Made by a program: the position numbers and the translations under genes
In this document: positions 21,256 to 38,168 of the stretch, in pieces
Layout: each line of letters begins with the position of its first letter
Numbering within the stretch: position 1 is the first letter of the stretch
Notes under the pieces: model-generated
The model's input: only the letters and a program-made list of their open reading frames with translations
Database searches by the model: none
Told to the model about the DNA's origin: nothing
DNA from: an uncultured Pelagibacteraceae bacterium
GTDB taxonomy: Bacteria > Pseudomonadota > Alphaproteobacteria > Pelagibacterales > Pelagibacteraceae
DNA: 64,000 bases
Direction of reading: 5' to 3'
Assembly: GCA_902540595.1 (NCBI GenBank)
Contig: CACBNI010000005.1
Location: 5,716 to 69,715, forward strand

Positions 21256-21271
21256 AACAAATAAAAAAAGC

Positions 21272-21301
21272 GCTGCTAGCTATTAGCTAGCAGCTTTTTT
21301 T
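21272..21301 (+). terminator. Intrinsic terminator-like hairpin between the tctC-like and tctA-like genes
   Basis: 10-bp perfect stem GCTGCTAGCT/AGCTAGCAGC, 3-nt loop, followed by T7; A tract upstream. Confidence 0.75.
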
Positions 21302-23287
21302 ATGGAACAATTATTAGCTGCACTTTTTCAACTCTTTGAGCCTACTCATTTAGCATTTCTATTTGCAGGTACTTTACTTGGTTTAATCGTTGGTATACTT
21401 CCAGGGATGGGTGGAACATCTGGTTTAGCTCTAGTTTTACCTTTTGTTTTTACAATGGAACCATCACATGCTCTTGCAATGATGATTGGAGTTCTGGCAC
21501 CAACGACGACTTCAGATACATTTCCTGCAGTACTAATGGGAGTACCTGGCACATCAGGTTCTCAAGCAACAGTAATGGATGGATTTCCGTTATCTAAAAA
21601 AGGTATGGCAGCAAGAGCGTTGAGCGCGGCTTTCAGTGCTTCATTGCTTGGAGGTGTCTTTGGAGCGTTAATATTATCAATATCAATTTATTACGCCATT
21701 CCAATAATAATGGCATTTGGATTTGGAGAACAATTTCTTTTAGTAGTCCTTGCTTTATTAATGGTTGGAGCTCTTACAGGTGACAATTTATTTAAAGGTA
21801 TTGCTTCTTGTTTTTTAGGATTAATTATTGGATCAATTGGAACTGCTCCAATTACTGGAGATCCAAGATATACATTTGATACATTATATCTTTTAGAGGG
21901 AGTACCTCTTGTTGTTGTCGGATTAGGATTGTTTGCAATTCCTGAAATTGTTGGACTTCTCGATGCTAAAGGCTCTATTGCTAAATCACTTAATACTAAA
22001 AAGGGTTGGTTCACAGGCTTGAAGGATGTAGTAAAAAATTGGTTTTTAGTTTTAAGATGCTCTACTCTTGGTTGTCTAGTTGGAGCCTTACCAGGTTTAG
22101 GAGGAACAGTCGTTGATTGGATTGCATATAGTCACTTAAAGCAAACAACAAAAGACACCTCTCAATTTGGTAAAGGTGATATTCGAGGAGTTATAGCACC
22201 TGAGTCTGCTAATAATGCAAAAGAGGGAGGTGCATTAATACCAACTTTGATTTTTGGAATACCAGGCTCTGGTAACAAAGTTTTATTACTTGGAGGCTTT
22301 GTATTGATTGGAATTGAACCTGGTTTAGATATGGTAACGACAAACCTAGATCTTACTTATCTAATGATTTGGTCTTTAGCTATTGCAAATATCTTGGGTG
22401 CTGGAATTTGTATGGGCTTTTCATCTCAAATTTCAAAATTTACTTTAGTTCCATATTACATACTTGCACCCGTCATGGTTTGTTTAATTTTTTTTGCAAC
22501 ATTTAACTTTAATAGAGACTGGTATGATTTTATTGGATTAATGTCTTTTGGTTTAATTGGTATTACCTTTAAAAATTTTGGCTGGTCTAGACCAGCTCTT
22601 TTAATAGGTTTCTTTTTATCAACTAAAGTTGAACTATTAAGTTACCAAACTCAAGCTGTTTATGGATTAAGTTTTTTAACTCGTCCAGTTTCAATAATTT
22701 TAATCATTTTATGTCTTGCTACAATTGTTCTATTGACGAAACAGAAATTTGACAAATATTATAGATCTGATTTTGTTAAAGGAAAGCTTACACAAATTTA
22801 TTATAATATTATATTGTTATGTCTTCCTTTATCAATGATATGGTTTACGATCAATTTAGACTATAGAGCTAACTTGTTTCCAATAAGCCTCAGTCTAATA
22901 GCTTTTTTTCTATTAACATTTATACTTATAATAAAAATTGCAGATTTAAAAAATTTATCATTTTTAAATTACAACATAATTAAATTTGCTCGATCAAATA
23001 TTTTTGAAATTGGTGGTAATTTCAAAATTCAAATTTATTATTATTTAAGCTTTATTGGTTTTCTATTAATGAATTTTATTTTTGGTTTTCCTATTGCTAC
23101 AGCACTTTTTATAAATATATTTATACTTTTTCATAATAAGAAATCTTATGTTTCATCAATTTGCATTTCTGCAGCATTGATGGTAATACTCTGGGCGTTA
23201 TCTTCACTGCTGACTTTACAGTTTCCAAACGGGTTGATTGGATTGTTTATCGATTTACCTTGGTGGCTGGGTGGACAATTGAATTAA
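21302..23287 (+). CDS. TTT permease TctA with C-terminal TctB-like extension
   Basis: G.LPG.G, GVPGT, APESANNA, GIPG motifs; about 160 extra hydrophobic C-terminal residues ending L.FP.G. Confidence 0.85.
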   Translation: MEQLLAALFQLFEPTHLAFLFAGTLLGLIVGILPGMGGTSGLALVLPFVFTMEPSHALAMMIGVLAPTTTSDTFPAVLMGVPGTSGSQATVMDGFPLSKKGMAARALSAAFSASLLGGVFGALILSISIYYAIPIIMAFGFGEQFLLVVLALLMVGALTGDNLFKGIASCFLGLIIGSIGTAPITGDPRYTFDTLYLLEGVPLVVVGLGLFAIPEIVGLLDAKGSIAKSLNTKKGWFTGLKDVVKNWFLVLRCSTLGCLVGALPGLGGTVVDWIAYSHLKQTTKDTSQFGKGDIRGVIAPESANNAKEGGALIPTLIFGIPGSGNKVLLLGGFVLIGIEPGLDMVTTNLDLTYLMIWSLAIANILGAGICMGFSSQISKFTLVPYYILAPVMVCLIFFATFNFNRDWYDFIGLMSFGLIGITFKNFGWSRPALLIGFFLSTKVELLSYQTQAVYGLSFLTRPVSIILIILCLATIVLLTKQKFDKYYRSDFVKGKLTQIYYNIILLCLPLSMIWFTINLDYRANLFPISLSLIAFFLLTFILIIKIADLKNLSFLNYNIIKFARSNIFEIGGNFKIQIYYYLSFIGFLLMNFIFGFPIATALFINIFILFHNKKSYVSSICISAALMVILWALSSLLTLQFPNGLIGLFIDLPWWLGGQLN

Positions 23288-23300
23288 ATAAATTTTTATA

Positions 23301-24095
23301 ATGACTGAAATAACATTTCCAAAATTACCTTTTATAAAAAGAGAGGAAAAACCCCGTGAGATAGGTATAAATTACGTTAGAGCCCCTGTGATGGTAGGAA
23401 ATTGCATTGATGATTACCTAGAAGCGTATGCAAGCGTTGTCGATATCTTTAAGATTTCAGGAAAACAAGGTGCCATGATGAGCAAAAAGTCTCTTTTAAG
23501 ATTTATTGAAACTTGTAAAAAACATAATGTTCAAATTGCATTAGGAAATCCAATTATGGATGTTGCATTATCTGGTGGAAAAGAAGTTGTAGATGATTAT
23601 TTAAATACAGTTGCAAGTCTGGGCATAGATATAATCGAAATCTCAAGTATAGCTCGTTCCTTAGATGATGATGAAATGTGCAGATTAATTAAGAACGCAT
23701 CAAGCAAAGGTATAAAAGTTATTAATGAGGTTGGTGTTGCGTTTGCACACTCTAAAGTAATCGAGGAAGAAATATTTATAGAAAGAATTAAAATGCAAAC
23801 AAAAAAATTTCTCGAGGCAGGTTCATGGAAAATATTACTTGAATCTGAGGGCTTAACAGAAAATCTTGATAAGAAAAATTATAGGTGGAATATAATTGAC
23901 AAAATTATCAGTCCATTAGAATTAAATCAGTTTATGGTTGAAGCTGATGATCAAGATGTACTATCAAAATATATTGAAATTTATGGACCAGGTATAAATA
24001 TGATGATTGACCATAGTAGAGTTCTTAAAATGGAAGATGCAAGACTAGGCTATGGACCATCACAATCCCTATGGGGTAAAGTTGTAAAATATTAG
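23301..24095 (+). CDS. Phosphosulfolactate synthase (ComA) family protein
   Basis: REEKPREIG, DDYLEAY...VDIFK, GIDIIEISS, EVG, LEAGSWKILLESEG, E..RLG. Confidence 0.75.
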   Translation: MTEITFPKLPFIKREEKPREIGINYVRAPVMVGNCIDDYLEAYASVVDIFKISGKQGAMMSKKSLLRFIETCKKHNVQIALGNPIMDVALSGGKEVVDDYLNTVASLGIDIIEISSIARSLDDDEMCRLIKNASSKGIKVINEVGVAFAHSKVIEEEIFIERIKMQTKKFLEAGSWKILLESEGLTENLDKKNYRWNIIDKIISPLELNQFMVEADDQDVLSKYIEIYGPGINMMIDHSRVLKMEDARLGYGPSQSLWGKVVKY

Positions 24096-24108
24096 ATTTT
24101 AAATAAAT

Positions 24109-24212
24109 AAATTTTACTTATTCATCTTGTTCAATTATAAATATTAGCATAAACACTCATGAAATTCATTAATGCCCTCGTGGTGAAATTGGTAGACACA
24201 AAGGACTTAAAA
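24109..24212 (+). repeat. att-like direct repeat copy 1: 65-bp promoter region plus 5' 39 nt of tRNA-Leu(TAA)
   Basis: 104 bp identical to 33255-33358; 7 mismatches to 34988-35091; ends in the anticodon loop CTTAAAA. Confidence 0.97.
24174..24212 (+). pseudogene. tRNA-Leu(TAA) 5' half fragment
   Basis: Identical to 35053-35091; no 3' half follows. Confidence 0.95.
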
Positions 24213-24235
24213 AACATAGGGTAGAGTAAATTTAT

Positions 24236-24379
24236 AGTCTCACACAGTCTCATATAGTCTTAAATCCCAGTAAATTCTAAATTTTAAAAAAACTTTAATT
24301 ATTTTTATTGCAAAATATGAATAATAAATTCCACCAAACTAGAAACTAACTAGAAACTAAAGAGATGAAATAATATAGT
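24236..24379 (+). repeat. Left arm of cassette A: AGTCT x3 (10-bp period) and AACTAGAAACT x2
   Basis: AGTCT at 24236/24246/24256; tandem 11-mer at 24337-24358; colinear with 33382-33525. Confidence 0.9.
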
Positions 24380-24386
24380 TTTAATA

Positions 24387-25265
24387 ATGAAAAAAATTTT
24401 AGGTATCGTGGTTCTAAGTTTATTAATATGTGAAAACGTTTTTGCTGGCGTAGAGGAAGTTTTGAAAGAGATCAAAAAAAATAAAGATATAGTCCAGGGT
24501 TTTGATAAAGTTAAAGAATTTGATACTTGGAATGAATGGCGTGTTACCCCTAAAGCAATACTCAAATCAGATAAATCAAAAAGACAGCATATAGTCAAGA
24601 TTGTTAATAAATCTGATAATCATCCTGTTAGATTTGGAAAACAATCTTTAAGATTTGAAGTTAGAAATGGTGATGGCTGGGGTTGGGATGCCAGGAATGA
24701 TAGAGAAAGATCCGAACTACTAATTTGTTGTGTTAATAAAAAAACTACATGGACTGCTTGGTCACTATATTTGCCTAATGATTATGAAAAGATATTTCCT
24801 GCTAAGACTATGTTAGCACAATTCCATAATGATGCTGATAATCCACCTGCATTTGCTTTTGATAATCAATCTGAACGTCATGTAAATGAGGGAGGTGGTT
24901 ATTGGATTGCAGTAGATGAATATATAAATAAGAAATTTTTACTAAAAAAACTATTAGATCATTCAGAAACACTTGGCAGATGGAACGATATTTTAGTTAA
25001 TGCAAAATGGACACACAAGGAAAATGGTTTTTTTAAAATTTGGATTAATGGTAAACTTGCTTTTCACCACAAAGGTATGACGCAAGAAAAAGGAGAAAAT
25101 ATTGAATTTCATGTTGGTATTTACAGATCTTTTCTTTCAAGAACACCTGGGCCAGATAAAACTCAAATAGCTTATTATGATGAGATAAGACATGCAAAGA
25201 CTTGTAAAAAACTTAAAATCAATGATCTAGGATATTCTTGTAAAGATATAGAAAATCAAAATTAA
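24387..25265 (+). CDS. Secreted polysaccharide lyase-like (heparin lyase I/Polysacc_lyase-like) protein
   Basis: Signal peptide MKKILGIVVLSL; SLRFEVR.GD, ERSEL, LAQFH, G.W.D, WING, GIYR, YYDEIR. Confidence 0.72.
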   Translation: MKKILGIVVLSLLICENVFAGVEEVLKEIKKNKDIVQGFDKVKEFDTWNEWRVTPKAILKSDKSKRQHIVKIVNKSDNHPVRFGKQSLRFEVRNGDGWGWDARNDRERSELLICCVNKKTTWTAWSLYLPNDYEKIFPAKTMLAQFHNDADNPPAFAFDNQSERHVNEGGGYWIAVDEYINKKFLLKKLLDHSETLGRWNDILVNAKWTHKENGFFKIWINGKLAFHHKGMTQEKGENIEFHVGIYRSFLSRTPGPDKTQIAYYDEIRHAKTCKKLKINDLGYSCKDIENQN

Positions 25266-25266
25266 A

Positions 25267-26226
25267 ATGAAAAAATTTTTATTTTTATTATTTTTTATCT
25301 TTTTAAATTATTCATATGCAGATCCATTAGTGTGGAAAGAATTAGCTGGAGGTAAAAGTAGTGGTAATTCGCGTTTAATTAATTTACCTGAAAGTGTTCT
25401 TGATGGAAAACAATTGAGAATGAACCATTGGGATGCTTGCTGGCAGAAAGGTAAAGGACCTGATCACTGTTTGATAATCACAGATGAAATTTCAAGAGAA
25501 GATAATATCTCTATTAAATTTGAAAGTCATCCAGGTGATTGTGGGATATACAAGAAATCTAATGATAGCAAAAACAACTGGAACAATTGCTATGAGGGAG
25601 CACGACGAGTTTTTATTGGAACAAAGTATCGAGATTGGGGAAGTAAATGGCTTTCATTTTCCGTATTAATCCCTAAAAATTATATTCATTCAAATACGCC
25701 ACTTATATTCAATCAAATACATAGAAAAAGCAAAGGTGCACATTATAGAATGGGTATCTCACCTGAAGGAATTGTAAATGTAGAGTTAAGAAGTTTTCTT
25801 CACGACAATAAGTGCGTTAAAATTAGTAAAAAACTTCTAGGAAAAAATATTTGTAGAAAAATAAGTGAAAAATATCACGATCCACCTTTTTTTGATTTAA
25901 AACATTTTTCTAATCACTTGGGAAAGTGGATAGATGTAATAGTGCATACACCTAATAAGAAAAGTTTACTCATGTGGGTTAACGGAAAAAAAATTATAAA
26001 TATGGAAAATAAAATGCCAGGAAACTCATCATTCTCGTCAACAAATTTTGGTATTTATCAGCCAAGAGCAAATCAAATAAAGGCTAAAGGAAAAAAAGTG
26101 GGAACTAAATGGAATTATGAGGAAGCTTCAACAGTTCAAATTTTATATATAGATGAAATAAGATTTGCAGATCAATGCAATCAATTAAACTTAATAAATT
26201 TAGGTTATAATTGTAACAAACTTTAA
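25267..26226 (+). CDS. Second, divergent secreted polysaccharide lyase-like protein
   Basis: Signal peptide; SIKFE..PGD, FNQIH, GKWID, WVNG, FGIY, YIDEIR; C-terminal C..L....LGY.C shared with the upstream paralogue. Confidence 0.65.
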   Translation: MKKFLFLLFFIFLNYSYADPLVWKELAGGKSSGNSRLINLPESVLDGKQLRMNHWDACWQKGKGPDHCLIITDEISREDNISIKFESHPGDCGIYKKSNDSKNNWNNCYEGARRVFIGTKYRDWGSKWLSFSVLIPKNYIHSNTPLIFNQIHRKSKGAHYRMGISPEGIVNVELRSFLHDNKCVKISKKLLGKNICRKISEKYHDPPFFDLKHFSNHLGKWIDVIVHTPNKKSLLMWVNGKKIINMENKMPGNSSFSSTNFGIYQPRANQIKAKGKKVGTKWNYEEASTVQILYIDEIRFADQCNQLNLINLGYNCNKL

Positions 26227-26276
26227 CATTAGTTGATTTTAAACAATGTTAGAAAAAAATCAGGTATTAAATTAGC

Positions 26277-27491
26277 ATGAATATAAAATCTTATAAATTT
26301 TCTCTTTATGATTTTGCTAATTCTGCCTTTACAACAGTTATTATAACTTTTGTTTTCTCAAATTATTTTGCGGAGTCAATTGTTCAAGATATGGTTAATG
26401 GCCAGGCATATTGGGGTTGGGCCATTTCAGTATCAGGACTATGCATTGCATTAAGCGGACCCTTTTTAGGAAATTTAGCTGATAAGAAGAATTTAAACTC
26501 AATTATCTTAAAATCAAGCACCTATTTATGTATACTTTTTACAGCAGCATTATGGTTTGCAAAACCATCTTCTGAATATATTTTATTTACCTTAATCATA
26601 GTTTGTTTGGCAAACTATTTTTATGAACTAAGTTCTATTTTCTATAATTCATTATTAGTTCATTCAGCTGACAAACAACATGTGGGAAAGGTGTCTGGTT
26701 TTGCTTTTGCGCTGGGGTATTTAGGTGGCATTGTCACACTTATTTTGACTATTATTTTATTAATTCAATCAAATTATTTAGTCGATTTAGATCAAAAAAT
26801 TAATTATAGATCAACTGCCATTTTTGTAGCTCTTTGGTTCCTCATTTTTTCCTATCCATTATTAAATCAAACTAAATATAAAAAAGTTGAACCAAACAAA
26901 AAGAAATCAAATAGTTTAAAAAAGATTCTTTGGAATAACGGTCTAACTAATACAACTCGTTTTTTGTTTGCAAGGCTACTTTATGCTGATGGTTTAAATA
27001 CCATTTTTGTCATGGGAGGAATTTTTGCTGTTGGTGTATTTAAATTATCAATAAATGAACTTTTAATGATGTCTGTTTTAATGAATGTTGCTGCTTTAAT
27101 AGGTGCTAGTTTTGGTGGATACTTCAATGACAAATATAATTCAAAAAAAACAATTTCCTTTTCCTTGATATGCCTTATTTTTTTCTCCATTTTAATCATT
27201 TTTACACAGTCAAAAATTAATTTTTTTATTTTTTCATTTTTCTTGGGATTATTTATAGGACCAATACAATCTGCTAGTAGGGTCATGATAACTAAATTAA
27301 CAAAAATTGAGGATCAAAATAAAGCTTTTGGGTTATTTGCTACTTCTGGAAAGCTGACGTCTTTTTTTGGCCCATTTTTAGTAGGAACTATTACTTTTAT
27401 AACTGAAAATCAAAGGATAGGTTTTGCCTCAGTTCTCTTACTGCTTATTTCTGGATGGATCATATTGTATAGAACCAAAGGATTAAAATAA
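26277..27491 (+). CDS. MFS transporter (UMF1/Atg22-like)
   Basis: YDFANSAF, FYNSLL, SG.AFALGYLGG, ASR, FGLFA..GK; about 12 TM segments. Confidence 0.85.
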   Translation: MNIKSYKFSLYDFANSAFTTVIITFVFSNYFAESIVQDMVNGQAYWGWAISVSGLCIALSGPFLGNLADKKNLNSIILKSSTYLCILFTAALWFAKPSSEYILFTLIIVCLANYFYELSSIFYNSLLVHSADKQHVGKVSGFAFALGYLGGIVTLILTIILLIQSNYLVDLDQKINYRSTAIFVALWFLIFSYPLLNQTKYKKVEPNKKKSNSLKKILWNNGLTNTTRFLFARLLYADGLNTIFVMGGIFAVGVFKLSINELLMMSVLMNVAALIGASFGGYFNDKYNSKKTISFSLICLIFFSILIIFTQSKINFFIFSFFLGLFIGPIQSASRVMITKLTKIEDQNKAFGLFATSGKLTSFFGPFLVGTITFITENQRIGFASVLLLLISGWIILYRTKGLK

Positions 27492-27573
27492 TGTTTATAC
27501 ACAGAGGATTAATTGAATAAAAATTTACTTAATAAACCTTAAACAAAAGTTTGATGTTTGTTAGTTAATTTTA

Positions 27574-27990
27574 TTAACAACAACCTTTTTTTTCAGTATC
27601 TGATCTTGCGCCGGCTGTATTATAAATCTCAGCATCTTCCATTGTGTGATAAGCTTCCCAAGCAACTCCATTTGGATCATTTACCCAAGATTTTTCTGAT
27701 TTTGCATAACAACATGTTACCTCACCATCAGAGTAAGTAGATATATCAGCTTTATCTAAATTAGTTCTTATATCGTTTAGTTTCTCAACTTTATCAACCT
27801 GTATTCCTAGATGATCTACTCCTAAAGTTTTTACTCTAGTAGATATTGCAAAATTAATCTTAGGATCTTCTAAAATCCATTGAGCATAATCTTCTTTTAC
27901 TTTTGTTGGTTCAGATTTAAATAAATTTTTATAAAAATTTATGCTTTCGTTTAAGTTTTTAACTCCAAGATGTAAATGTAGTCTTTGCAT
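27574..27990 (-). CDS. ArsI/CadI-family VOC metalloenzyme
   Basis: RLHLHL.V..L..SI.FY, DHLGIQV, TCCYA.SEKSWVNDP.GVAWEAY, C-terminal CC. Confidence 0.85.
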   Translation of the reverse strand: MQRLHLHLGVKNLNESINFYKNLFKSEPTKVKEDYAQWILEDPKINFAISTRVKTLGVDHLGIQVDKVEKLNDIRTNLDKADISTYSDGEVTCCYAKSEKSWVNDPNGVAWEAYHTMEDAEIYNTAGARSDTEKKGCC

Positions 27991-28172
27991 ATTTTTAATT
28001 CTTTTAAAAATTACAATACATTAAATTTTATAAAATTAAATTACAAATTTATTACAAAGAGTATCTAATCCATAAAATAAATTACAAATAGAAAAGAATG
28101 AGACATTAAAAGCTATTTAATCCACACTAATTTAAGCAATTAGACTCATGTTTTAGGATTTGTTAATCTTAG

Positions 28173-28340
28173 ATGATGGATCAACTAATACCTGTAGTAT
28201 ATATGATAGGAGTTCTATTATTGGTTCTGCCTGCTTTTTTACAGTCTAATTCTAAATTAAAACAATTATTAACTAATTTTACTATTTGGATTATCATAGT
28301 GCTTATAATTTTAACTTTTATTTATTTATTTAAGGTTTAA
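28173..28340 (+). CDS. Small two-TM membrane protein, 55 aa (not in ORF track)
   Basis: Translated by hand: MMDQLIPVVYMIGVLLLVLPAFLQSNSKLKQLLTNFTIWIIIVLIILTFIYLFKV. Confidence 0.6.
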   Translation: MMDQLIPVVYMIGVLLLVLPAFLQSNSKLKQLLTNFTIWIIIVLIILTFIYLFKV

Positions 28341-28384
28341 TGAAGAAACTTTTAGGGATCGTAATTCTGGATTATAGGATTTAA
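28340..28384 (+). pseudogene. Signal-peptide stub MKKLLGIVILDYRI*
   Basis: ATGAAGAAACTTTTAGGGATCGT nearly identical to 37225; similar to the start of 24387. Confidence 0.7.
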
Positions 28385-28386
28385 TA

Positions 28387-28422
28387 GGATAACTAGTAAT
28401 AGACTAGTAAGTAGAGAGATAA
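28387..28422 (+). repeat. Orphan internal copy of cassette A right-arm motif
   Basis: 36 bp GGATAACTAGTAATAGACTAGTAAGTAGAGAGATAA identical to 33212-33247. Confidence 0.95.
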
Positions 28423-28428
28423 TAAATA

Positions 28429-29004
28429 TTAAGTTATACTTTTTTCATCTGGTTCAAGGCATAAACCTTGAGCCTCTGTAATTTTCTCAGGTAGATTATC
28501 AAGTTTCCAGTTATTGTCTGTTATATCAAAATAATCCTGAGGATCAAAGCCCGGTTTATTAACTAACTCAATACCAAAAAAATTATTATCCTCATACCAA
28601 GCCATCATTGCACTAATCATATCTTTTACACTTTTTAATCCTGGTGCTTGCATCATGACTATATTCATGTCTCGAAAAAGATTTTGCACTAAAACAACCT
28701 TAGCTGCATCATCAATTGGATGGCCATTTATTTTAATTGGGAGTGTTTTATCTTGAAGACTTTGAATATTTTTATGACTTTTCATTGTTGTGAAAGAAAA
28801 TAAAATTCCCATCCTTTCACAATCACCTTTGTTCATAAAAAACCTTAGTTTATCTCCATGAGTTACTTCACCATTTTTAGCAGTAACTACAAAAGTATCA
28901 AATTCCTCAACATACCATTGATCTTCATCTGCTTGAGCATGGTATGCAAATAAAATTAAAAAAAGAAATAAATGAACTGAAACAATAAGTAATAGCTGCC
29001 TCAT
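28429..29004 (-). CDS. Hypothetical secreted protein
   Basis: 191-aa ORF with a signal peptide ending AQA. Confidence 0.7.
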   Translation of the reverse strand: MRQLLLIVSVHLFLFLILFAYHAQADEDQWYVEEFDTFVVTAKNGEVTHGDKLRFFMNKGDCERMGILFSFTTMKSHKNIQSLQDKTLPIKINGHPIDDAAKVVLVQNLFRDMNIVMMQAPGLKSVKDMISAMMAWYEDNNFFGIELVNKPGFDPQDYFDITDNNWKLDNLPEKITEAQGLCLEPDEKSIT

Positions 29005-29186
29005 GATTTAAGCTCCACTTTGAAGCCATTATTCCTAAAGATTTTGATTATTTTTTCCCAGACTAAGCTGTTATGTGCACCTGGGCTTACTTCGAATTTG
29101 AATGTTTTTTTGTAGACGGGATCGCAGTTATCGTATGCAACGTAAGCACTGACATGACAGTACTTCATGACACGGTCTATTTCCAT
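29001..29186 (-). CDS. Small hypothetical protein
   Basis: 61-aa ORF with an ATGA overlap to the downstream gene; start uncertain. Confidence 0.4.
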   Translation of the reverse strand: MEIDRVMKYCHVSAYVAYDNCDPVYKKTFKFEVSPGAHNSLVWEKIIKIFRNNGFKVELKS

Positions 29187-29408
29187 ATATTGGAACTCCT
29201 ATTGTTGGTTGAGGTTTTGTGGGTTAACAATTTATAGTTAGTAATGGTTCCACTCCTTTTCCTATCAAATGGTTTACGAAACAAGGATGACAATGAAAGG
29301 AACCGTAAACGTGAGAAAAGGAATGAAATCCAATGCATAATTTTAATTAATATTTTCATTTGGTGAAAAGAAGTTAAAAAAAAGTTATAAATGTGGTCTA
29401 TAAAAATT

Positions 29409-29684
29409 ATGAAAATTACTTTAAAATTTTTATTTTTACTTTTCTTTCTTTCCTCGTGTGTGAGTGGTAATTGGCAACATCAAAGTGGAAATAACACAAA
29501 TCTTTCACTAGATAAAAATTTTTGTAATAGTTTTGCAGATTCAAGGTTTCCTACCTATCTTTGTAAAAATCCTTTAATGTGTGCACCTGACGAAACCAGC
29601 AAAGTAATATCAAGTATAGCTGAAAATAGTGCAGCCTACAGAAATTGCATGTATGGAAAAGGATATAATTTGCAGGATAATTAA
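29409..29684 (+). CDS. Small Cys-rich lipoprotein
   Basis: MK + hydrophobic stretch + LSSC lipobox; YRNCMYGKGY C-terminus. Confidence 0.7.
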   Translation: MKITLKFLFLLFFLSSCVSGNWQHQSGNNTNLSLDKNFCNSFADSRFPTYLCKNPLMCAPDETSKVISSIAENSAAYRNCMYGKGYNLQDN

Positions 29685-29734
29685 GGAAAAAAAATTTAAT
29701 TTTACACTCAAATCTGACTGTGATTAGATTACAA

Positions 29735-30196
29735 ATGTCAGAAATAAACCTCTGGGACAAGTATCGAAATGAAAGCAAGCAAACTATTTGTATAATTGGT
29801 GTATTAATTCTCTCATCTAAGCTTTGTGTAGCTGACGGACATTTTTCTTTAGATGAAGAAGAGGAAATTTTGAAAATTATTCCACACGAACCTCAGCAAA
29901 AAAGAATATTAATGAGAATTTTAGAGGAAGGCGCAAAAGATCTAAATCCGATTTCTTTTCATGCTCAAAAAATAAAAAATTTAATTGGTAATGATCAGCC
30001 AGATTTTTTAGAATTTATAGTAGCTGTTCTATATAGATTAGCTCACAGCGACCATGTTTATCACGACGAAGAAGATATGGCCATAAGAGAGGTTGCAAAA
30101 ATATTTGGAATTACAAAAACTAATTGGCAATTTACTAAAGAAACTTTCTTCAAATTTTTTAAATACAAGTTTTTAAATACGAGACAAAATGCCTAA
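29735..30196 (+). CDS. TerB/DjlA-N-like domain protein
   Basis: ADGHFSLDEE and LAHSDHVYHDEE..AIREVAKIFGI, the paired TerB-like motifs. Confidence 0.75.
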   Translation: MSEINLWDKYRNESKQTICIIGVLILSSKLCVADGHFSLDEEEEILKIIPHEPQQKRILMRILEEGAKDLNPISFHAQKIKNLIGNDQPDFLEFIVAVLYRLAHSDHVYHDEEDMAIREVAKIFGITKTNWQFTKETFFKFFKYKFLNTRQNA

Positions 30197-31961
30197 TTTA
30201 GATAATATACATTACAAATTTTTTCCTAAGGCGAAAACTTCACCTTACGGAAAAACTTTAATAAAATTTGCTTGGGCAATTGAAATTATAGTTGCAACTG
30301 TTGGATTAACTATTGCTGCATTTTTGTATATGAGAGCATTAGACGGATCTGAAGATATCAGCACTGCAACCACATGGACAGAAAAACTTACTGAAAACAT
30401 TGATGGAGTAATAGTATCCCTGGCTTTTGTAGTTGTTTCAGTTGTTGAGCTTACTAAAATTCCATTAGCAACTGCTTTTTATTATGCAGCTAAAGCTAGA
30501 TGGAAAATAACCTTCGTTGTAGCACTAATATTAATAAATATATCAACATTCGAGACAATAATTCAGGGATTTGAACTTGGTTTTTATAAAAGATCTAATG
30601 AAGTAGCTAAAGTTAAGCAAAAACTGGAGGATATAAATACACAAATTAATCAAAAGACAGTAGGTGCTGGTGAGGACCGAAAGTTACTTTCAGAAAAAGA
30701 GGATAAAGTTTTAGAACAAATTAACAGCTACAATAAAGATATTACAAAAATAAATATTAATAAAAATAAGCAAATAAGTGACTTAAAAACTGAATTTACT
30801 TTAGCTAATCCACAATTAAAAACTAAACAAGACCAAATTGACTCTGAAAGACAGTCATTAAAAGAATTTAAAAGTTCATCTGATGATAAAATTCAAAGTA
30901 GACGAGTTGAAATTTCTAAACTTGAGAATATTACAGAGTTCAAAGGATCTTTCACTTTATCAAGAAAAAAGCAAATGGAAGAAAGAGATTTGAAAGTCTC
31001 TAAATTAAGAAATGATTTAATTTCATTTGAGAAAACAATAACAACAGAGATAGAAAGAAAAGAAAATTTTATTAGAGATCTCCAAAAAGAAAAAGATACT
31101 CTTGAAGGAACAATAGGTGCAGACATTCAAGAAAAAATTTCAGATATCGAAAAAATTGCTGAACTAGATAAAGAAAATATAGATTTAGATCTTAAAACTA
31201 AAAGAAGTGAACTAGCAAATATCCAGCTTCAAATAAGTGATTTTGATAACAAAACTCTTAACTACTCTAATGAAGCAACAAAACTCAAGGAACAATGTGC
31301 AGAGGTAGCTGATGAGTTGGAAAAAGTTGCCTTAGATAACCAAACCTACAGGTTTGCAATTAAAATTAAGTCTTTTAGAAAATGGCTTTCCAATTTTAGT
31401 TTTTCTTCAATCCTACCTTGGAATTGGGGTGATGAAAAAATAAATACAGAAAATAAAGATCCAGAAATTGTCGCAAGCTCAGAAAAAAAATGCTCCAAAT
31501 CAAGCGCAGCTTTAATTTCTGATGATGATCTAAATTTTGCATTCTGGTTATGGTTTGGAACGCTAGCTTTTGTAATTTCAGTAATAGGAACATTTATTGC
31601 TTTAGCTGGTCTTCATTTACAGGATGAAAGAATGCATGAAATTAGAAACAGACCTATGAAGGAAAGATTTGCCAGATTCTTTAGAAATATCGCATGGATA
31701 CCTGTTTATATTAATAAGTACATTTGGGCTGGAGTTAAAAGGTTTACCAAACCTAAAATTGTTGAAAAAGAAGTTATAGTTGAAAAGGAAGTTGAAAAAA
31801 TAGTCGAAAAAAATGTAGGTGAAAAAATTATCTATGAAAAAGTTGAGGTACCAAAAGAAGTTGTTCGAAAAGAAATTGTATACGTTCCTCTTCCTACAGA
31901 CGATGAAGAACTATTGAAAAAAGGTCCATTTAGGCCAGATGAAAAAGATAAGAAAAAATAA
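30189..31961 (+). CDS. Multi-TM protein with long coiled coil and VEK-rich tail
   Basis: About 3 N-terminal TMs, roughly 250-aa heptad-rich region, a C-proximal TM, VEKEV repeats. Confidence 0.75.
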   Translation: MPNLDNIHYKFFPKAKTSPYGKTLIKFAWAIEIIVATVGLTIAAFLYMRALDGSEDISTATTWTEKLTENIDGVIVSLAFVVVSVVELTKIPLATAFYYAAKARWKITFVVALILINISTFETIIQGFELGFYKRSNEVAKVKQKLEDINTQINQKTVGAGEDRKLLSEKEDKVLEQINSYNKDITKININKNKQISDLKTEFTLANPQLKTKQDQIDSERQSLKEFKSSSDDKIQSRRVEISKLENITEFKGSFTLSRKKQMEERDLKVSKLRNDLISFEKTITTEIERKENFIRDLQKEKDTLEGTIGADIQEKISDIEKIAELDKENIDLDLKTKRSELANIQLQISDFDNKTLNYSNEATKLKEQCAEVADELEKVALDNQTYRFAIKIKSFRKWLSNFSFSSILPWNWGDEKINTENKDPEIVASSEKKCSKSSAALISDDDLNFAFWLWFGTLAFVISVIGTFIALAGLHLQDERMHEIRNRPMKERFARFFRNIAWIPVYINKYIWAGVKRFTKPKIVEKEVIVEKEVEKIVEKNVGEKIIYEKVEVPKEVVRKEIVYVPLPTDDEELLKKGPFRPDEKDKKK

Positions 31962-32698
31962 TGTCTGATGAAAAAATTCAATATGATGTTCATGATTATG
32001 ACCCAGTTAATAAATACATTGATGATCAAGCAAGATTAAAAAGATCTGCAAGTACTTGGAGATATGCTAAATCTTTAACTCTAGTCATGGTTGGTGCAGG
32101 AATTCTAGCTTTACTTTTAGCTTGGGCTTATTATTTATATAAAAAACCACATAGACTTGTTAGTTTGAGCGAAATTGAACAAAAGGTACTTAAGAATGAA
32201 GAGAGATTAATTGAAAATGAGAGAAGGCTTCCTACAGAAAAAGAGATTCAAACAAATACTTCCTCTAATCTAACTAAATCCGAAATTAATAAAAGAGATC
32301 AAAAAATTTTAGAATTAGAAGATAAATTAAAGAATGATCCAACAAATCAGGACCTCAAGGATAAGGTTGTAAATTTAAAGGCAGAGAAAAAAGAATTACA
32401 AAAAAAATTAAATCAACTTAATCAAGTTCAGACAAACGTTATACATTTTAAATCGCAAAATACTAAACTTGGGAATAACGATGTAAGGGTTGTAACAAGA
32501 CTCCATTATGATGATCCAAGAAACTTAAATCCTAATGAAATTACATGTTATATCCAATTTGATAATCCTGATATTCCAAAAATAGAACTCTCAAATAAAA
32601 ATGACAATTCTTTTTATTTATCAAACTATAATAAAACAAAATATTCTATCAACGATCAACAAATCAGAGATTTAAAAAATAGATATTGTCTTTATTAA
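31961..32698 (+). CDS. Single-TM coiled-coil hypothetical protein
   Basis: One N-proximal TM, coiled-coil, TAATG coupling on both sides. Confidence 0.75.
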   Translation: MSDEKIQYDVHDYDPVNKYIDDQARLKRSASTWRYAKSLTLVMVGAGILALLLAWAYYLYKKPHRLVSLSEIEQKVLKNEERLIENERRLPTEKEIQTNTSSNLTKSEINKRDQKILELEDKLKNDPTNQDLKDKVVNLKAEKKELQKKLNQLNQVQTNVIHFKSQNTKLGNNDVRVVTRLHYDDPRNLNPNEITCYIQFDNPDIPKIELSNKNDNSFYLSNYNKTKYSINDQQIRDLKNRYCLY

Positions 32699-33189
32699 TG
32701 AGAAATTTTTTCATTTTAATAATTTTTTTTATTCTTCCATTTAATTATTGTGAAGCTTATGAAATTAAAGTGGTTGATGGAGATACAATTATTCTTAATG
32801 GTGAAAAAATAAGATTCTCAGGGATAGATACTCCTGAGAGTTATTATCGCGGAAAAAAACAAATCTGCTATGATGGAAATAATAAGATATTTTGTGGAGA
32901 CATATCAAAAAAAGTTTTAATTAATAAAATAGCTAGCAATGAAGTATCATGTATCAAAGAAAAAAAACCAGACAGATACAAGAGAATACTTGCTGAGTGT
33001 TTTGTAAATAATGAGAGTCTTTCCAAATATTTAGTTAGAAACGGTTATGCATTTGATTATGCTTATTATTCAAAGAAAAAATTCGCTAAGGATGAACAAT
33101 ATGCAAAAAAAAATAAACTTGGATTTTGGAAAATTGAATTTGATTACCCTTGGATTTGGAGGAAAAAAGTAAGAGAAGGAAAAATTTAA
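32698..33189 (+). CDS. Thermonuclease (SNase-like) family protein, exported
   Basis: VVDGDTI, IRFSGIDTPE, DRYKRILA, LVRNGYA, AK..KLGFW; signal peptide. Confidence 0.92.
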   Translation: MRNFFILIIFFILPFNYCEAYEIKVVDGDTIILNGEKIRFSGIDTPESYYRGKKQICYDGNNKIFCGDISKKVLINKIASNEVSCIKEKKPDRYKRILAECFVNNESLSKYLVRNGYAFDYAYYSKKKFAKDEQYAKKNKLGFWKIEFDYPWIWRKKVREGKI

Positions 33190-33198
33190 TATTTGTTA

Positions 33199-33249
33199 AT
33201 AGGACTTTATGGGATAACTAGTAATAGACTAGTAAGTAGAGAGATAAAA
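33199..33249 (+). repeat. Right arm of cassette A: ACTAGTAA x2 (11-bp period) plus AGAGAGATAAAA
   Basis: First repeat 104 bp before the tRNA fragment, the same offset as 34949 relative to 35053. Confidence 0.9.
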
Positions 33250-33254
33250 TTAAA

Positions 33255-33359
33255 AAATTTTACTTATTCATCTTGTTCAATTATAAATATTAGCATAAAC
33301 ACTCATGAAATTCATTAATGCCCTCGTGGTGAAATTGGTAGACACAAAGGACTTAAAAT
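33255..33359 (+). repeat. att-like direct repeat copy 2: promoter region plus 5' 40 nt of tRNA-Leu(TAA)
   Basis: Identical to 24109-24212; tRNA fragment at 33320-33359. Confidence 0.97.
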
Positions 33360-33381
33360 AGTTTGAGTTGGTGAATTTCAA

Positions 33382-33525
33382 AGTCTCTAATAGTCTCAAA
33401 TAGTCTTATTCCCTTATAATCCTATATATTTTAAAATCATTGGATTACTTTTATTGAAAAATCATAATAAATAATATTCAGATTCTCGGAACATTCTCGG
33501 AACTAGGCAGATAAAATGATATAGT
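33382..33525 (+). repeat. Left arm of cassette B: AGTCT x3 and ATTCTCGGAAC x2
   Basis: AGTCT at 33382/33392/33402; tandem 11-mer at 33482-33503. Confidence 0.9.
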
Positions 33526-33562
33526 AAAATTAATAGAACACAAATCAACATTTAAAGAATTA

Positions 33563-34645
33563 ATGAAAAAATGGGATTTTAATAAAATTAAATTATCAGC
33601 AAAAAAATATAAAACAAAGGAAGAGTGGAGACAGGGAAAAAACACATCATATTATACAGCCGCAGATAGAGGCTTATTAAATAATAAAATTATAGTTGGA
33701 CATTTTTTAGAACCTAAAAGATGGACATTAAAAAAAATTGTTGATGATGCTAAAAAATATAAATTTAAAAAAAATTGGTACGAAACACCAAAATCATCTT
33801 ATGATGCTGCTAGATCAAGAGGATTATTAAAAAATAAAGAAGTAATTGGTCATTTTAACAAAACAATATATCCATCAAAGTGGACATTAAAAAAAATAAT
33901 TGCAGCAGCCAAAAAGTTTAGTACCAAAAAAGAGTGGCTAGATGCTGAAAAAACTAAAGTATGTTTTTCGTACAGAGCAGCAAAAGAAAGAAAACTTTTA
34001 TTTGATAAAAGGGTTATTGGGCATTTCAAAAATATGGATCCAGCAAAAAAGTGGACTTATTTAAATATAATCAATACGGCTAGGAAATGTAAAACTTTGA
34101 AAGAATGGAGAGAAAAATACCCGTATGCGTATCACAGAGCATCAAAAACTAGGGTTTTAAATAAAGTTTCAGGACATTTAAAGAGAATAGGCCATAAATA
34201 TCTAAGATGTATTTATACAATAGAAGTTAGGGGAAAAAAAATAATTTATATAGGCTTGTCATTTAATTTAACAAAGAGATTAGCGGAACACCTTAATAGT
34301 AAACGTTTTAAAGATATCAAAAAGATTTATGGAAAAAATTGTTTAATTGTAAATCAGGTAACCAAGTACTTGCCAGTCAATAAAGCTGCTAAAAAAGAGG
34401 ACATATTAATTTCAAAATACAAAAAAAAGGGTTTCAAAGTTCTTAATAAAAAAAGTGGTGGTGATTTAGGGTCAATAGCTAGTAAATGGACCAAAGAAAA
34501 AGTTATACAATCTGCTAAAAAATTTAAAACTCAAAAAGAATGGAGAGCAAAAGTACCTTCAGCATATGCAATAGCAAAAAGGAAAGGTTATTTAAAATCT
34601 GCGCAAAAATTTCTTTATGTTCAAAAAGAAAAAATAAGATATTAA
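33563..34645 (+). CDS. GIY-YIG nuclease with five helical repeats of about 50 aa
   Basis: CIY...IYIGLS..LTKRLAEH...E...LN core; repeats W(T/D)..KI...AKK(Y/F).T..EW....AY..A...LL. Confidence 0.8.
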   Translation: MKKWDFNKIKLSAKKYKTKEEWRQGKNTSYYTAADRGLLNNKIIVGHFLEPKRWTLKKIVDDAKKYKFKKNWYETPKSSYDAARSRGLLKNKEVIGHFNKTIYPSKWTLKKIIAAAKKFSTKKEWLDAEKTKVCFSYRAAKERKLLFDKRVIGHFKNMDPAKKWTYLNIINTARKCKTLKEWREKYPYAYHRASKTRVLNKVSGHLKRIGHKYLRCIYTIEVRGKKIIYIGLSFNLTKRLAEHLNSKRFKDIKKIYGKNCLIVNQVTKYLPVNKAAKKEDILISKYKKKGFKVLNKKSGGDLGSIASKWTKEKVIQSAKKFKTQKEWRAKVPSAYAIAKRKGYLKSAQKFLYVQKEKIRY

Positions 34646-34671
34646 TTAATTAATATATTTATAAAAGTCTT

Positions 34672-34929
34672 ATGGAATTTCTTGGTTTATTTATAGGAAA
34701 TATGTTTTTAATGTATTTAGGACTTTTCCTATTTGCATGTATTTGGTGGTACAGTTGTAAATGGTTTTTTGTTTTATTAGTTTTAGTTGGTGAAAAATTT
34801 TTTAAAAAAGACAGCTGGCAATACAATATTTATATGTTTACTTTTGTTGGTGGGGGTGGACTTGTAACAGTATATTTATTTATTTGGCTTTTTTTATCAA
34901 TATCAAAAGGAGAGTGGTTAACGTTTTAG
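34672..34929 (+). CDS. Small two-TM membrane protein
   Basis: 85-aa hydrophobic ORF inside cassette B. Confidence 0.65.
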   Translation: MEFLGLFIGNMFLMYLGLFLFACIWWYSCKWFFVLLVLVGEKFFKKDSWQYNIYMFTFVGGGGLVTVYLFIWLFLSISKGEWLTF

Positions 34930-34931
34930 TT

Positions 34932-34982
34932 ATTGGATTTTATAGGACAACTCGGAACAAACTCGGAAACAGAGAGATAAAA
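34932..34982 (+). repeat. Right arm of cassette B: AACTCGGAA x2 (11-bp period) plus AGAGAGATAAAA
   Basis: Repeats at 34949 and 34960; colinear with 33199-33249. Confidence 0.9.
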
Positions 34983-35005
34983 TAAAAAAATTTTACTTAT
35001 TAGCC

Positions 35006-35034
35006 TTGTTCAATTATAAATATTAGCATAAATA
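35006..35034 (+). promoter_or_regulatory. Putative sigma70 promoter of tRNA-Leu-nadK (copies at 24127 and 33273)
   Basis: TTGTTC-17 bp-TAAATA (TAAACA in the other two copies), ending 18 bp before the tRNA 5' end. Confidence 0.6.
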
Positions 35035-35052
35035 CTCATGAAATTAACTTAT

Positions 35053-35138
35053 GCCCTCGTGGTGAAATTGGTAGACACAAAGGACTTAAAATCCTTGCCG
35101 CTTGCGGAGTGCCAGTTCGAGTCTGGCCGAGGGCACCA
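35053..35138 (+). tRNA. tRNA-Leu(TAA)
   Basis: Acceptor GCCCTCG/CGAGGGC, anticodon arm AAGGA-CTTAAAA-TCCTT, long variable arm, GTTCGAG, CCA. Confidence 0.97.
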
Positions 35139-35142
35139 TTAA

Positions 35143-35913
35143 ATGAGTAAACCTCAAATCATTTCAGATAAAAATAAAAAATCTCTTAAAATTAAAAATA
35201 TTCTAATCAAAAAAATAGAAGTTAATCAATTCAAAAAATCTAATTTGGTAATTGTTATAGGTGGTGATGGTTTTATGCTTCAAACACTTAAAAAAAATAA
35301 GAGTTCTAAAAAGCAATTTTATGGAATTAATTCAGGAAATTATGGTTTTCTGATGAATATTTTTTCCTCAAAAAATATTATTAAAAATTTAACAAAAGCT
35401 AATATGATTTCTATTTCACCATTAGAAATGACAGTAAAAAATAAAAATAATAAATCAAAAAAATCACTTGCTATAAATGAGGTTTCTGTCCTTAGACAAA
35501 GCAGACAAGCTGCATCATTATCTATCAAGCAAGGTTCAATACAAATAATTAAAAATTTAGTTTCCGATGGTGTTTTAGTCTCTACACCTGCAGGAAGCAC
35601 TGCTTATAATTTATCTGTTCATGGTCCGATACTAAGCTTAAATTCAAAAAAATTATCTATTTCTCCAATTAGTCCGTTTAGACCGAGAAGATGGAGAGGG
35701 AAAATTGTTAACGATAAATCAAAAATTACTATTACTAATTTGAATCCAGATAAAAGACCCATAAGTGCTGTTGCTGATAATCTAGAAGTAAGAAACGCAA
35801 AGTCAATTACAATTAAAACCAACAGCAAAATTAAATTTAATCTGCTTTATGATAAAAATCGAAGTTTACAAAAAAAAATTAAAATTGAGCAATTAAGAAG
35901 AGAAACAAATTAA
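35143..35913 (+). CDS. nadK: NAD kinase
   Basis: GGDGFML, GFLMN, AINE, DGVLVSTPAGSTAYNLS. Confidence 0.93.
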   Translation: MSKPQIISDKNKKSLKIKNILIKKIEVNQFKKSNLVIVIGGDGFMLQTLKKNKSSKKQFYGINSGNYGFLMNIFSSKNIIKNLTKANMISISPLEMTVKNKNNKSKKSLAINEVSVLRQSRQAASLSIKQGSIQIIKNLVSDGVLVSTPAGSTAYNLSVHGPILSLNSKKLSISPISPFRPRRWRGKIVNDKSKITITNLNPDKRPISAVADNLEVRNAKSITIKTNSKIKFNLLYDKNRSLQKKIKIEQLRRETN

Positions 35914-36123: not shown

Positions 36124-36131
36124 AAATTTAA

Positions 36132-36179
36132 TGGTGCCCCCGCACGGATTCGAACCGCGGACCTATTGATTACAAATCA
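36132..36179 (-). repeat. att-like duplicate of the 3' 48 nt of tRNA-Thr(TGT)
   Basis: Identical to 38222-38269; identity stops just past the anticodon loop. Confidence 0.97.
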
Positions 36180-36271
36180 GGAATAAAAATTCAAAAAGAT
36201 AAATACTATCAACGTTAATTGAAAGTTATTTCAAATCTGTACACACTATAGGCACAGTGGTATATTTTTTT

Positions 36272-37225
36272 ATGAAAGATAATCTAGGAAGACTACAAAA
36301 AGTTGATTTAAGAGAGATTTGGGAAAAAGAGGATACTCATTTCACGCCTTGGTTAGCAAGAGAAGAAAATATTGAACTACTTGGTTCAGCAATAGATATG
36401 GATTTAGTTGTTGAGGCAGAGGAGAAAGACGTTGGTCCTTTTAGAGCTGATATACTTTGCAAAGATATAGCTTCGAACAATTGGGTATTAGTAGAAAATC
36501 AACTGGAGAAAACTGATCATAAACATCTTGGTCAACTATTAACTTATGCAACTGGTTTAGATGCTGTCACAATTATTTGGGTAGCTTCAGATTTCACTGA
36601 AGAACATAGAGCAACACTTGATTGGCTGAATAAGATAACAGATACACAATATAATTTCTTTGGAATTAAAGTTGAACTTTTCAAAATAGGGGACTCTAAA
36701 GTTGCACCAGTGTTTAACGTTGTCAGCAAACCTAATAACTGGTCCAGAAGTATTTCTTCTGCAGCGTCTAAGATAGCTAACGAGGATATTGGTGAGACTA
36801 AAGTATTTCAGTTAAAATTTTGGACAGCTTTATGCGAGGCTATTAAGGCTAAAAATGATAGTCCTTTAAAAATTCAGAAACCATCTCCAAAACATTGGCA
36901 CACTTTTTCAATCGGAAAGTCTGGAGTTAATCTTTCTATGACATTTAATACAAAGGAAGATATTTTGGGTATAGAAATTTATATAGTTAAAGATCAAAGT
37001 ATATTTGAGAGTTTAGAACAAGATAAAGAAAGCATTGAGACTGAAATAGGTCACAAATTAAGTTGGCAACCACTTCCAGGTAGATCAGCTTCAAGAATTA
37101 AATTAGATAGAAATAGTTCAGTTTTAGATAACGAAAATGAGTGGAATGAATACATTGATTGGTCCATTGAAAAACTTGAAAAATTTTATCACGTTTTTCG
37201 AAGCAAAATTAAGAACCTAGATTAA
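36272..37225 (+). CDS. PD-(D/E)xK-like nuclease fused to a DUF4268-like domain
   Basis: E...FTPWL, RADIL, VENQL..TDHKHLGQLLTYA; C-terminal FW..L, IETEIG..L.W, ASRI. Confidence 0.8.
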   Translation: MKDNLGRLQKVDLREIWEKEDTHFTPWLAREENIELLGSAIDMDLVVEAEEKDVGPFRADILCKDIASNNWVLVENQLEKTDHKHLGQLLTYATGLDAVTIIWVASDFTEEHRATLDWLNKITDTQYNFFGIKVELFKIGDSKVAPVFNVVSKPNNWSRSISSAASKIANEDIGETKVFQLKFWTALCEAIKAKNDSPLKIQKPSPKHWHTFSIGKSGVNLSMTFNTKEDILGIEIYIVKDQSIFESLEQDKESIETEIGHKLSWQPLPGRSASRIKLDRNSSVLDNENEWNEYIDWSIEKLEKFYHVFRSKIKNLD

Positions 37226-37260
37226 TGAAAAAACTTTTAGGGATCGTGGATCTGGGTTAA
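37225..37260 (+). pseudogene. Signal-peptide stub MKKLLGIVDLG*
   Basis: Near-identical to the stub at 28340; overlaps the upstream stop (TAATG). Confidence 0.7.
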
Positions 37261-37270
37261 CTTTATTTTA

Positions 37271-38101: not shown

Positions 38102-38115
38102 CGACTACTTGATTG

Positions 38116-38168
38116 ATACACAATCCATACACACTCTATACACAATCAAAGCACACTATGAGCACAGT
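38116..38168 (+). repeat. Five CACANT repeats at an exact 11-bp period (arm of cassette T)
   Basis: CACA at 38119, 38130, 38141, 38152, 38163; two more at 36242 and 36253. Confidence 0.92.

Follow-up and report, generated by a model that had tools for sequence, protein, structure and literature searches.

Integrase-free gene cassettes stacked in the anticodon loop of a SAR11 tRNA-Leu(TAA) gene carry arms that match satellite-like elements

What moves gene-sized segments into a tRNA gene when no recombinase lies beside them? The question is raised by the window, a stretch of 64,000 nucleotides from an uncultured Pelagibacteraceae bacterium (assembly GCA_902540595.1, contig CACBNI010000005.1, positions 5,716 to 69,715), whose genome (G000) comprises 1.2 Mb at ~30% GC in 37 contigs and is 87.75% complete. 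A 104-bp unit, consisting of a 65-bp upstream segment and the first 39 nt of tRNA-Leu, starts at 24109, 33255 and 34988, and sequence comparison bears out these three copies, which an earlier note on the DNA had listed. Between copies 1 and 2 there is no difference (104/104), whereas copy 3 agrees with each at 97/104 positions. As that note had claimed, only the third continues into an intact tRNA, tRNA-Leu(TAA), placed by ARAGORN solely at 35053-35138; the other two are broken at the anticodon loop, both stopping after nt 39, the final base of the 7-nt loop CTTAAAA, with copy 2 matching one base beyond. The unit-to-unit spacings reproduce the lengths given for the enclosed segments, 9146 bp (A) and 1733 bp (B). 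Judged from the break, the 7 bp at 24206-24212 are the likely crossover overlap. A and B are probably integrase-free cassettes stacked in this loop, with arms that match those of satellite-like elements, and the enzyme that moves them in and out is likely a satellite tyrosine integrase acting in trans. The array is composed as follows.

24109..24212, plus strand: unit copy 1, the 65-bp upstream segment and tRNA-Leu nt 1-39 (24174-24212), an attL-like left junction.
24236..24260, plus strand: left arm of A, AGTCT three times, once every 10 bp, with homology to satellite left arms in their core-proximal ~50 bp.
24338..24368, plus strand: left box of A, ACTAGAAA twice (11-bp spacing) and GAGATGA; the word is shared with the integrated satellite L079.
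24387..28340, no strand assigned: cargo A1, two polysaccharide-lyase-fold proteins, a major facilitator superfamily transporter, a glyoxalase-fold protein and a 55-aa membrane open reading frame (ORF) (Pfam).
28377..28422, plus strand: internal relic right arm of A, GGATTTAATAGGA, ACTAGTAA twice and GAGATAA, without promoter or tRNA half.
28429..33189, no strand assigned: cargo A2, ORFs of unknown function, a TerB-like protein, 590-aa and 245-aa membrane/coiled-coil proteins and a thermonuclease (SNase) (Pfam).
33202..33247, plus strand: right arm of A, the 13-bp motif, ACTAGTAA twice and GAGATAA, ending 72 bp before the tRNA half.
33255..33358, plus strand: unit copy 2, the A/B junction.
33382..33422, plus strand: left arm of B, AGTCT three times (33382-33406) and the inverted 13-bp motif (33410-33422).
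33484..33514, plus strand: left box of B, TCTCGGAA twice and CAGATAA.
33563..34929, plus strand: cargo B, a 360-aa GIY-YIG nuclease with internal repeats and an 85-aa membrane ORF.
34935..34980, plus strand: right arm of B, GGATTTTATAGGA, ACTCGGAA twice and GAGATAA.
34988..35052, plus strand: upstream segment of copy 3, with the candidate promoter TTGTTC (35006-35011), 17 bp, TAAATAC (35029-35035).
35053..35138, plus strand: intact tRNA-Leu(TAA), the target gene, followed by NAD kinase (ARAGORN, Pfam).

Each segment follows the same plan. On the left, AGTCT occurs three times after the break, and a spacer separates these repeats from a box in which an 8-mer pair with 11-bp spacing is followed by GAGATAA or a near variant; on the right come a 13-bp motif, a box of the same type, promoter-like DNA over 72 bp and finally the 5' half of the tRNA. 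The left arms of A and B are homologous without gaps, as had been noticed, at 62% identity across 165 nt. All the arm motifs first described are present at their offsets from the tRNA half (+62, +129, +163 and +199 on the left, -104 on the right), but those at +129 and +199 are AT-rich and weaker, and the ones conserved across the 42 cassettes compared below are +62 and +163/-104. The cassette boundaries consist of direct repeats and tRNA halves; no long inverted repeat lies at them among the 25 longest listed. Pfam content upholds the view that the cargo of A is unrelated to that of B. The absence of a recombinase is likewise sustained: Pfam finds none among 42 window ORFs up to 39074 and tblastn with ten integrases none in A or B, and no tyrosine recombinase lies near the array, the genome's two sitting on other contigs. 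No decayed unit was found at 10000-24100. The TTGTTC-17 bp-TAAATAC element is presumably the tRNA promoter, going by the alphaproteobacterial consensus; an Escherichia coli-type promoter scan does not list it.

In B, the word CTCGGAA is identical at both ends, and parts of the cargo recur with 0-3 differences in four independent studies. From its place next to the tRNA, B may reasonably be taken as the newest cassette. In A, the ends disagree: the left word ACTAGAAA differs from the right word ACTAGTAA, which is that of the viral-fraction element L062, and A is one of four mismatched cassettes among 42. A block in locus L091 matching 26259-28457 at 96% identity ends in the relic box, with a unit directly after it. 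Because A holds an internal right arm at 28377-28422 and the L091 box adjoins a unit directly, the sequence suggests that A is probably two cassettes fused through loss of one unit and one left arm. PADLOC finds no convincing system in the cargo of A or B. A role of the GIY-YIG nuclease of B as a general homing driver was considered and rejected, most cargo families not being nucleases. DNA encoding a signal-peptide start (MKKxLGIVVL-like) opens the first cargo gene in 9/42 cassettes and also stands as orphan remnants beside arms, with window sites at 24384-24421, 28337-28374 and 37222-37259; it may serve as homology for cargo swapping.

Such arrays recur in relatives. The unit matches 298/401 genomes, and 100 loci were taken from the 150 best listed matches by contig context, a sample that favours the cassette-type upstream segment. 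Upstream 5' copies occur in 47/100 of these loci (one copy in 38, two in 9) and in 40/82 of those with at least 15 kb upstream, and the right box precedes the intact tRNA in 52/100. The architecture is present in the single-contig genome G332 (L119) and in G171. The loci define 56 segments of 0.9-9.4 kb. In these and the window's two, 58 in all, ten tblastn queries match no integrase, while three autonomous controls are matched. Pfam returns no PF00589 among 100 cargo-family representatives, at a cut-off of 1e-6 that would miss the satellite integrase (E 4.9e-5), and tblastn is relied on instead. Grouping of the 161 cargo proteins gives 114 families, of which 93 are singletons across the sampled loci, agreeing with the expectation that content varies between strains; the 100 representatives include restriction-modification genes, nucleases, transporters and many unknowns, and pilin-like ORFs lie in L082, a member locus of the largest family. 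Whether the arms ever flank other cargo had been set as a test capable of refuting the cassette idea, and B-type arms do surround different cargo in L123, L126 and L203. A scan of metagenome contigs used a pattern that was too narrow and gave 3 loci; L154 proved to be an unrelated phage contig.

The doublet words of the boxes are paired within cassettes. Both doublets were recognised by rule in 42 segments (the window's two, 39/56 and one from L082; 17 were dropped), with about 20 word types. The left word equals the right word exactly in 38/42 cassettes, against 3.3 expected from shuffling and a maximum of 12 in 20,000 shuffles. Identity between left and right at the six variable positions is 97.6%, compared with 58.5% in shuffles, and with one cassette per right word (n=22) it is 96.6% versus 57.5%. 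Spacing is equally regular: in cassettes and satellites alike, 71-73 bp separate the end of the right box from the tRNA and 124-127 bp lie between the break and the start of the left doublet, though left-arm homology between the two groups stops at ~50 bp. In the sequence pattern, repeated arm sites flank the 7-bp overlap on both sides at fixed spacing. Five cassette words equal satellite words at the DNA level: ACTAGAAA (L079; left end of A), ACTAGTAA (L062; right end and interior of A), ACCAGCAC (L077), ACCAGTAC (L151) and CTAGGAT (L058).

The cassettes also carry features of their own. Their left arms match those of satellites in the first ~50 bp only, the best alignment of their left box is with the right box of satellites (33 bp, 11-bp spacing) and not with the integrase start, and the promoter segment differs between the two groups. 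An inverted 13-bp motif, defined from the cassettes, lies in both arms, in 36/42 and 37/42 cassettes against 24/4164 background windows; the left copy in A fails the cut-off. As a possible origin or packaging signal it was sought in 7 satellites and found in none at one mismatch, a stricter cut-off than that applied to cassettes. The left unit copy lacks the 65-bp segment in 6/42 cassettes (a seventh is a contig edge), and the ends of these therefore share little beyond the 39-nt half. Because the promoter segment, the left box and the inverted 13-bp motif are shared derived traits, we infer that the cassette family has its own history, and the cassettes are not plain decayed satellites.

The matching elements come from a scan of viral contigs for the tRNA half, which gave 24 loci, many of them T7-like pelagiphages with unrelated flanks. 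In four viral-fraction loci (L043, L058, L062 and L064), cassette arms flank the tRNA half on both sides and a 545-aa ORF begins 141 bp downstream of the start of that half. L043, L058 and L062 have terminal repeats (99-123 bp), consistent with circles. These satellite-like elements are 7.7-8.9 kb long and encode a tyrosine integrase and a primase-helicase, joined in L043 by a RusA-like resolvase; no capsid gene was hit among the nine L043 ORFs scanned. Copies are integrated at tRNA-Leu(TAA) in L077, L079 and L151. The predicted structure of the ~545-aa protein aligns with lambda and Tn1549 integrases (Z 18.2, root-mean-square deviation (rmsd) 3.9, 265 aligned), and its N-terminal domain with the arm-type binding domain of the HPI integrase 3jtz (Z 9.3, rmsd 2.1, 77/77; next hit Z 4.6). 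With K400, R485 and Y518 invariant, the model describes a P4-like heterobivalent tyrosine integrase with predicted arm-binding, core-binding and catalytic domains. The satellite left boxes lie within the first integrase codons, at +125 and +137, at the same distance from the break as in cassettes. Other element types with different arms also use the tRNA-Leu 5' half (L082 in G225, L059, L061, L039 and L089-L090); the site is therefore shared by several integrase families.

This codon overlap allows words to be read from integrase genes. Searches give 98 homologues, and a self-consistent word is found in 51/75 proteins against 15.7 in shuffles, where coding boxes were read in two frames. Of the 20 cassette words, 13 fit one inferred from integrase N-terminal codons, a count given without a null. 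A quick tree built on the C-terminal region of 63 proteins requires 50 word changes, versus 52.2 after shuffling, so that the words barely cluster; residues 85-96 of the arm-binding sheet are among the columns that track the word most closely. In this comparison three labels were set from DNA and ambiguous codons were resolved one way.

A second line of evidence comes from a landing site that is not a tRNA gene, between gatB and an O-methyltransferase gene, with no more than 20-27 nt of the tRNA half to its left and non-tRNA sequence to its right. The site is filled by a complete cassette in the single-contig genomes G068, G218 and G343, with word and cargo different in each and the joint exactly at the loop end, and is empty in G064, G142 and G227 (loci L199-L201, L210, L214 and L217). 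The exact right-joint pattern matches 4/291 genomes; no second copy is found in G042, G147 or G264, and the site is absent from G000. The viral-collection contig L051 ends in this same joint. That the site exists both empty and filled, with the joint exact, speaks for site-specific insertion. A paired anticodon-stem change in the intact tRNA, with no cassette directly upstream, occurs in G042, G064, G068, G147 and G264; that the altered tRNA blocks insertion is speculation.

The mechanism that we propose begins with a satellite whose arm-binding domain matches the cassette. Its presence in the cell would lead to excision of the cassette as a circle, the joint of which would unite the right box, the promoter, the tRNA 5' half and the left arm. 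This joint would then recombine with the 7-bp anticodon loop, the incoming 5' half and promoter would rebuild the tRNA, and older cassettes would be pushed upstream. The doublet word is likely the arm-type site that chooses which integrase variant moves a cassette. Recombination through short homologies probably joins cassettes to one another, as in A, and exchanges their cargo. Least certain is how a cassette passes from cell to cell, for which co-packaging with the satellite in phage particles or vesicles is the best guess. The earlier notion of non-autonomous, attP-bearing cassettes served by an integrase in trans accords with the full arms, the varied cargo, the 0/58 integrase count and the candidate helper satellites, but A is probably two cassettes where one had been counted. 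Its comparison to integron accretion does not hold, the anatomy being that of double-stranded attP x attB recombination with no IntI near the array. Restoration of the 5' half is already published for the pelagiphages HTVC105P and HTVC109P, in which the accessible text describes tRNA-Leu(TAA) as restored by an element-borne 5' portion (10.1101/410191). The 5'-half polarity recurs at tRNA-Met and tRNA-Gly in G000, whose presumed assignment to Pelagibacter (SAR11) rests on its size and GC content, a 45-nt exact match to HTVC105P and a Pelagibacteraceae record in which tRNA-Leu(TAA) and the gene downstream of it recur.

Several observations weigh against mobilisation by satellites. The integrase family is not found in G000, at 87.75% completeness, and it occurs in 9/401 genomes, 3 of them with it at tRNA-Leu(TAA); encounters with a helper must therefore be transient. 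No integrase with the B word CTCGGAA is found among the 75 examined, and A may no longer move, because its two ends bear different words. The covariation of word and residues is confounded by physical linkage, since the left boxes lie at the start of the integrase coding sequence. A single insertion, with later homologous exchange through the common arms, could account for all three filled ectopic alleles. Circles and joints of integrase-free cassettes were not seen: the four metagenome runs compared with 32500-35900 consist of short contigs, unable to show circles, and the absence of a circle joint from the 15 of 82 joints shown says nothing either way.

Could the cassettes instead be decayed satellites, that is, CIMEs (cis-mobilisable elements) whose integrase was lost in situ and whose movement, if any, would be in cis alone and depend on a neighbouring intact satellite? 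Tandems of a cassette with a satellite-like element exist (L082), the left joint of L151 includes a boxed unit, certain cassette left arms agree with satellite arms at 90-100% over their first ~50 bp, and a three-step route is described for Streptococcus elements in the accessible text of PMC5704250. Independent decay would not converge on the cassette-specific promoter segment, left box and inverted 13-bp motif, and we regard decay as an unlikely origin; cis-mobilisation may still be one route of transfer. A further reading takes the arms as relics of one old insertion and has the cassettes spread by RecA-type recombination, for which homology would be provided by the 104-bp unit, by the arms in common and by conserved genes downstream. 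Homologous exchange clearly acts, as genes 97-98.5% identical to A cargo occur in cassettes with other words, and ~104 bp of homology is available at the cassette-type upstream segment in 100/100 sampled intact tRNAs (a sample selected for it); window copies 1 and 2 are identical, as in just 1/52 within-genome pairs. Left unexplained by such spread are the four-site word matching over about 20 types with its match to satellite words, the fixed spacing across unrelated spacer, and the empty and filled ectopic site without right-side homology, which make it a similarly improbable account of the array.

A different recombinase might act in place of the satellite enzyme, either a T7-like pelagiphage integrase or one of the two PF00589 proteins of G000, of 474 aa (C9) and 318 aa (C24). 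HTVC105P and HTVC109P do integrate at tRNA-Leu(TAA), and many of the 24 viral loci are T7-like; the phage attP flanks inspected, however, show neither the AGTCT triple nor the doublet box, and the C9 integrase is 16% identical to the satellite family and sits at tRNA-Met with other repeats (TTACCAAC), so that this is very unlikely. Least probable of all is an assembly artefact that joined or misordered cassettes from different cells. The 37-contig assembly and the identity of copies 1 and 2 would allow it, but the same architecture is seen in 47/100 loci, including single-contig G332, and pieces of B cargo recur with 0-3 differences in four independent studies; an artefact could affect only the cassette order here and not the family. 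Insertion and excision by a satellite integrase in trans is the explanation we prefer.

Among known systems, tandem accretion of ICESt1-related islands is reportedly the subject of Pavlovic 2004. Arm sites play a role in heterobivalent integrase systems. The P4-like integrases HPI and HAI7 (3jtz, 3ju0, 3rmp) resemble the modelled satellite enzyme in the predicted arm-binding fold and in direct-repeat doublets; in the SAR11 elements, unlike those, arm word and N-terminal domain are shuffled over near-identical catalytic domains, and integrase-free elements track the words. HTVC019P-type pelagiphages share the target gene and 5' restoration, yet they are whole autonomous phages with unrelated attP flanks. 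CIMEs, as described in the accessible text of PMC5704250, are similar in lacking integrase and transfer genes, in retaining attL and attR, both kept here, in stacking at one site and in relying on a related autonomous element; they differ in being presented there as decay products moved in cis by conjugation. The cassettes share a derived arm design of their own and fall into about 20 word types that match different helpers, the helper being a satellite-like element, and they are not simple deletion derivatives, only the ~50-bp left arm and the 33-bp box matching satellites.

VEIMEs (virion-encapsidated integrative mobile elements) are marine phage satellites, ~20% of them without a detected integrase in the accessible text of Eppley et al. 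2022 (PMC9618062). The helper elements fit this group, being small, encoding an integrase and a primase, occurring in viral fractions and integrated in Pelagibacter, with no capsid gene in L043; the cassettes do not, carrying cargo only, without an integration or replication module of their own. The main text of that paper contains 0 occurrences of 'tRNA' or 'attP' and no arm anatomy (PMC9618062). Tycheposons of Prochlorococcus are likewise tRNA-targeted cargo tandems with partial tRNAs between them, the newer pushing the older outward, but the accessible text defines them as integrase-carrying and treats integrase-free parts as remnants (10.1101/2020.12.28.424599). Here the common unit has no integrase, the gene by which tycheposons are defined, and retains matched arms. 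Integrons resemble the array in that small cargo units gather at one site, likely in age order, and differ in that no IntI is near and each cassette bears a full attP-like arm set and the tRNA promoter. The cassettes are accordingly neither integrons, tycheposons nor satellites, and resemble CIMEs in part. For SAR11 islands, partial tRNA repeats are said to mark gene-cassette insertion without canonical mobile elements (Molina-Pardines et al. 2025, PMC11796062); the accessible text, Fig. S2 and supplements aside, gives no arms, helper or mechanism. The accessible parts of PMC13586616, PMC5812530, PMC10872708 and 10.64898/2026.04.03.716430 provide context and not a cassette system. No prior description of the arms, the matched words or the helper link was found in the literature covered, which excludes supplements and most subscription papers.

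Comparable arrangements stand at other tRNAs of the genome. At 36131-38297, an integrase-free cassette of ordinary polarity occupies tRNA-Thr(TGT) (3' copy, nt 29-76, at 36131-36179), with ACACAC/CACACTAT repeats in its arms and, as cargo, a DUF4268 protein (PADLOC PDC-S11, E 4.5e-124) and an endonuclease/exonuclease/phosphatase protein. At tRNA-Met(CAT) (G000:C9:1715-17700), two upstream 5' copies accompany an element of ~8.9 kb, with the 474-aa integrase and polymerase-like and terminase-small-subunit-like ORFs (named by eye), and a second, integrase-free segment of 7 kb; TTACCAAC repeats lie in the arms of both, and the locus is possibly a parallel helper-and-cassette system. At tRNA-Gly(GCC) (G000:C6:48794-52796), the segment enclosed by an upstream 5' copy is 3.9 kb long, lacks an integrase and holds ABC transporter-like genes, with GACACACTCACGACAC repeats at either end. 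Upstream of the array, 15858-24095 encodes a glycoside hydrolase, a HAD hydrolase, two ComA and Tct genes; similar genes stand between tRNA-half copies in L140, L010 and L033, and the block may be older island content.

Taken more broadly, and as a tentative proposal held at somewhat less than even confidence, SAR11 cassettes could be a distinct non-autonomous class that parasitises satellites. The word in each rebuilt attP would match one variant of a satellite integrase family that keeps exchanging its arm-binding module, with words, arms and cargo exchanged as modules too; some lineages would have altered the tRNA, with the 20-27-bp site used instead, and the cassettes would be a main route of flexible-gene gain without mobility genes in SAR11, the ocean's most abundant bacterium. 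For the question of how SAR11 islands gain genes, the cassettes name an enzyme family, a target site and recognition words that make it testable. The natural integrase set, with one core target and many arm words, is a resource for arm-site specificity, and the cargo, comprising restriction-modification genes, pilin-like proteins, nucleases and transporters, bears on phage defence and niche.

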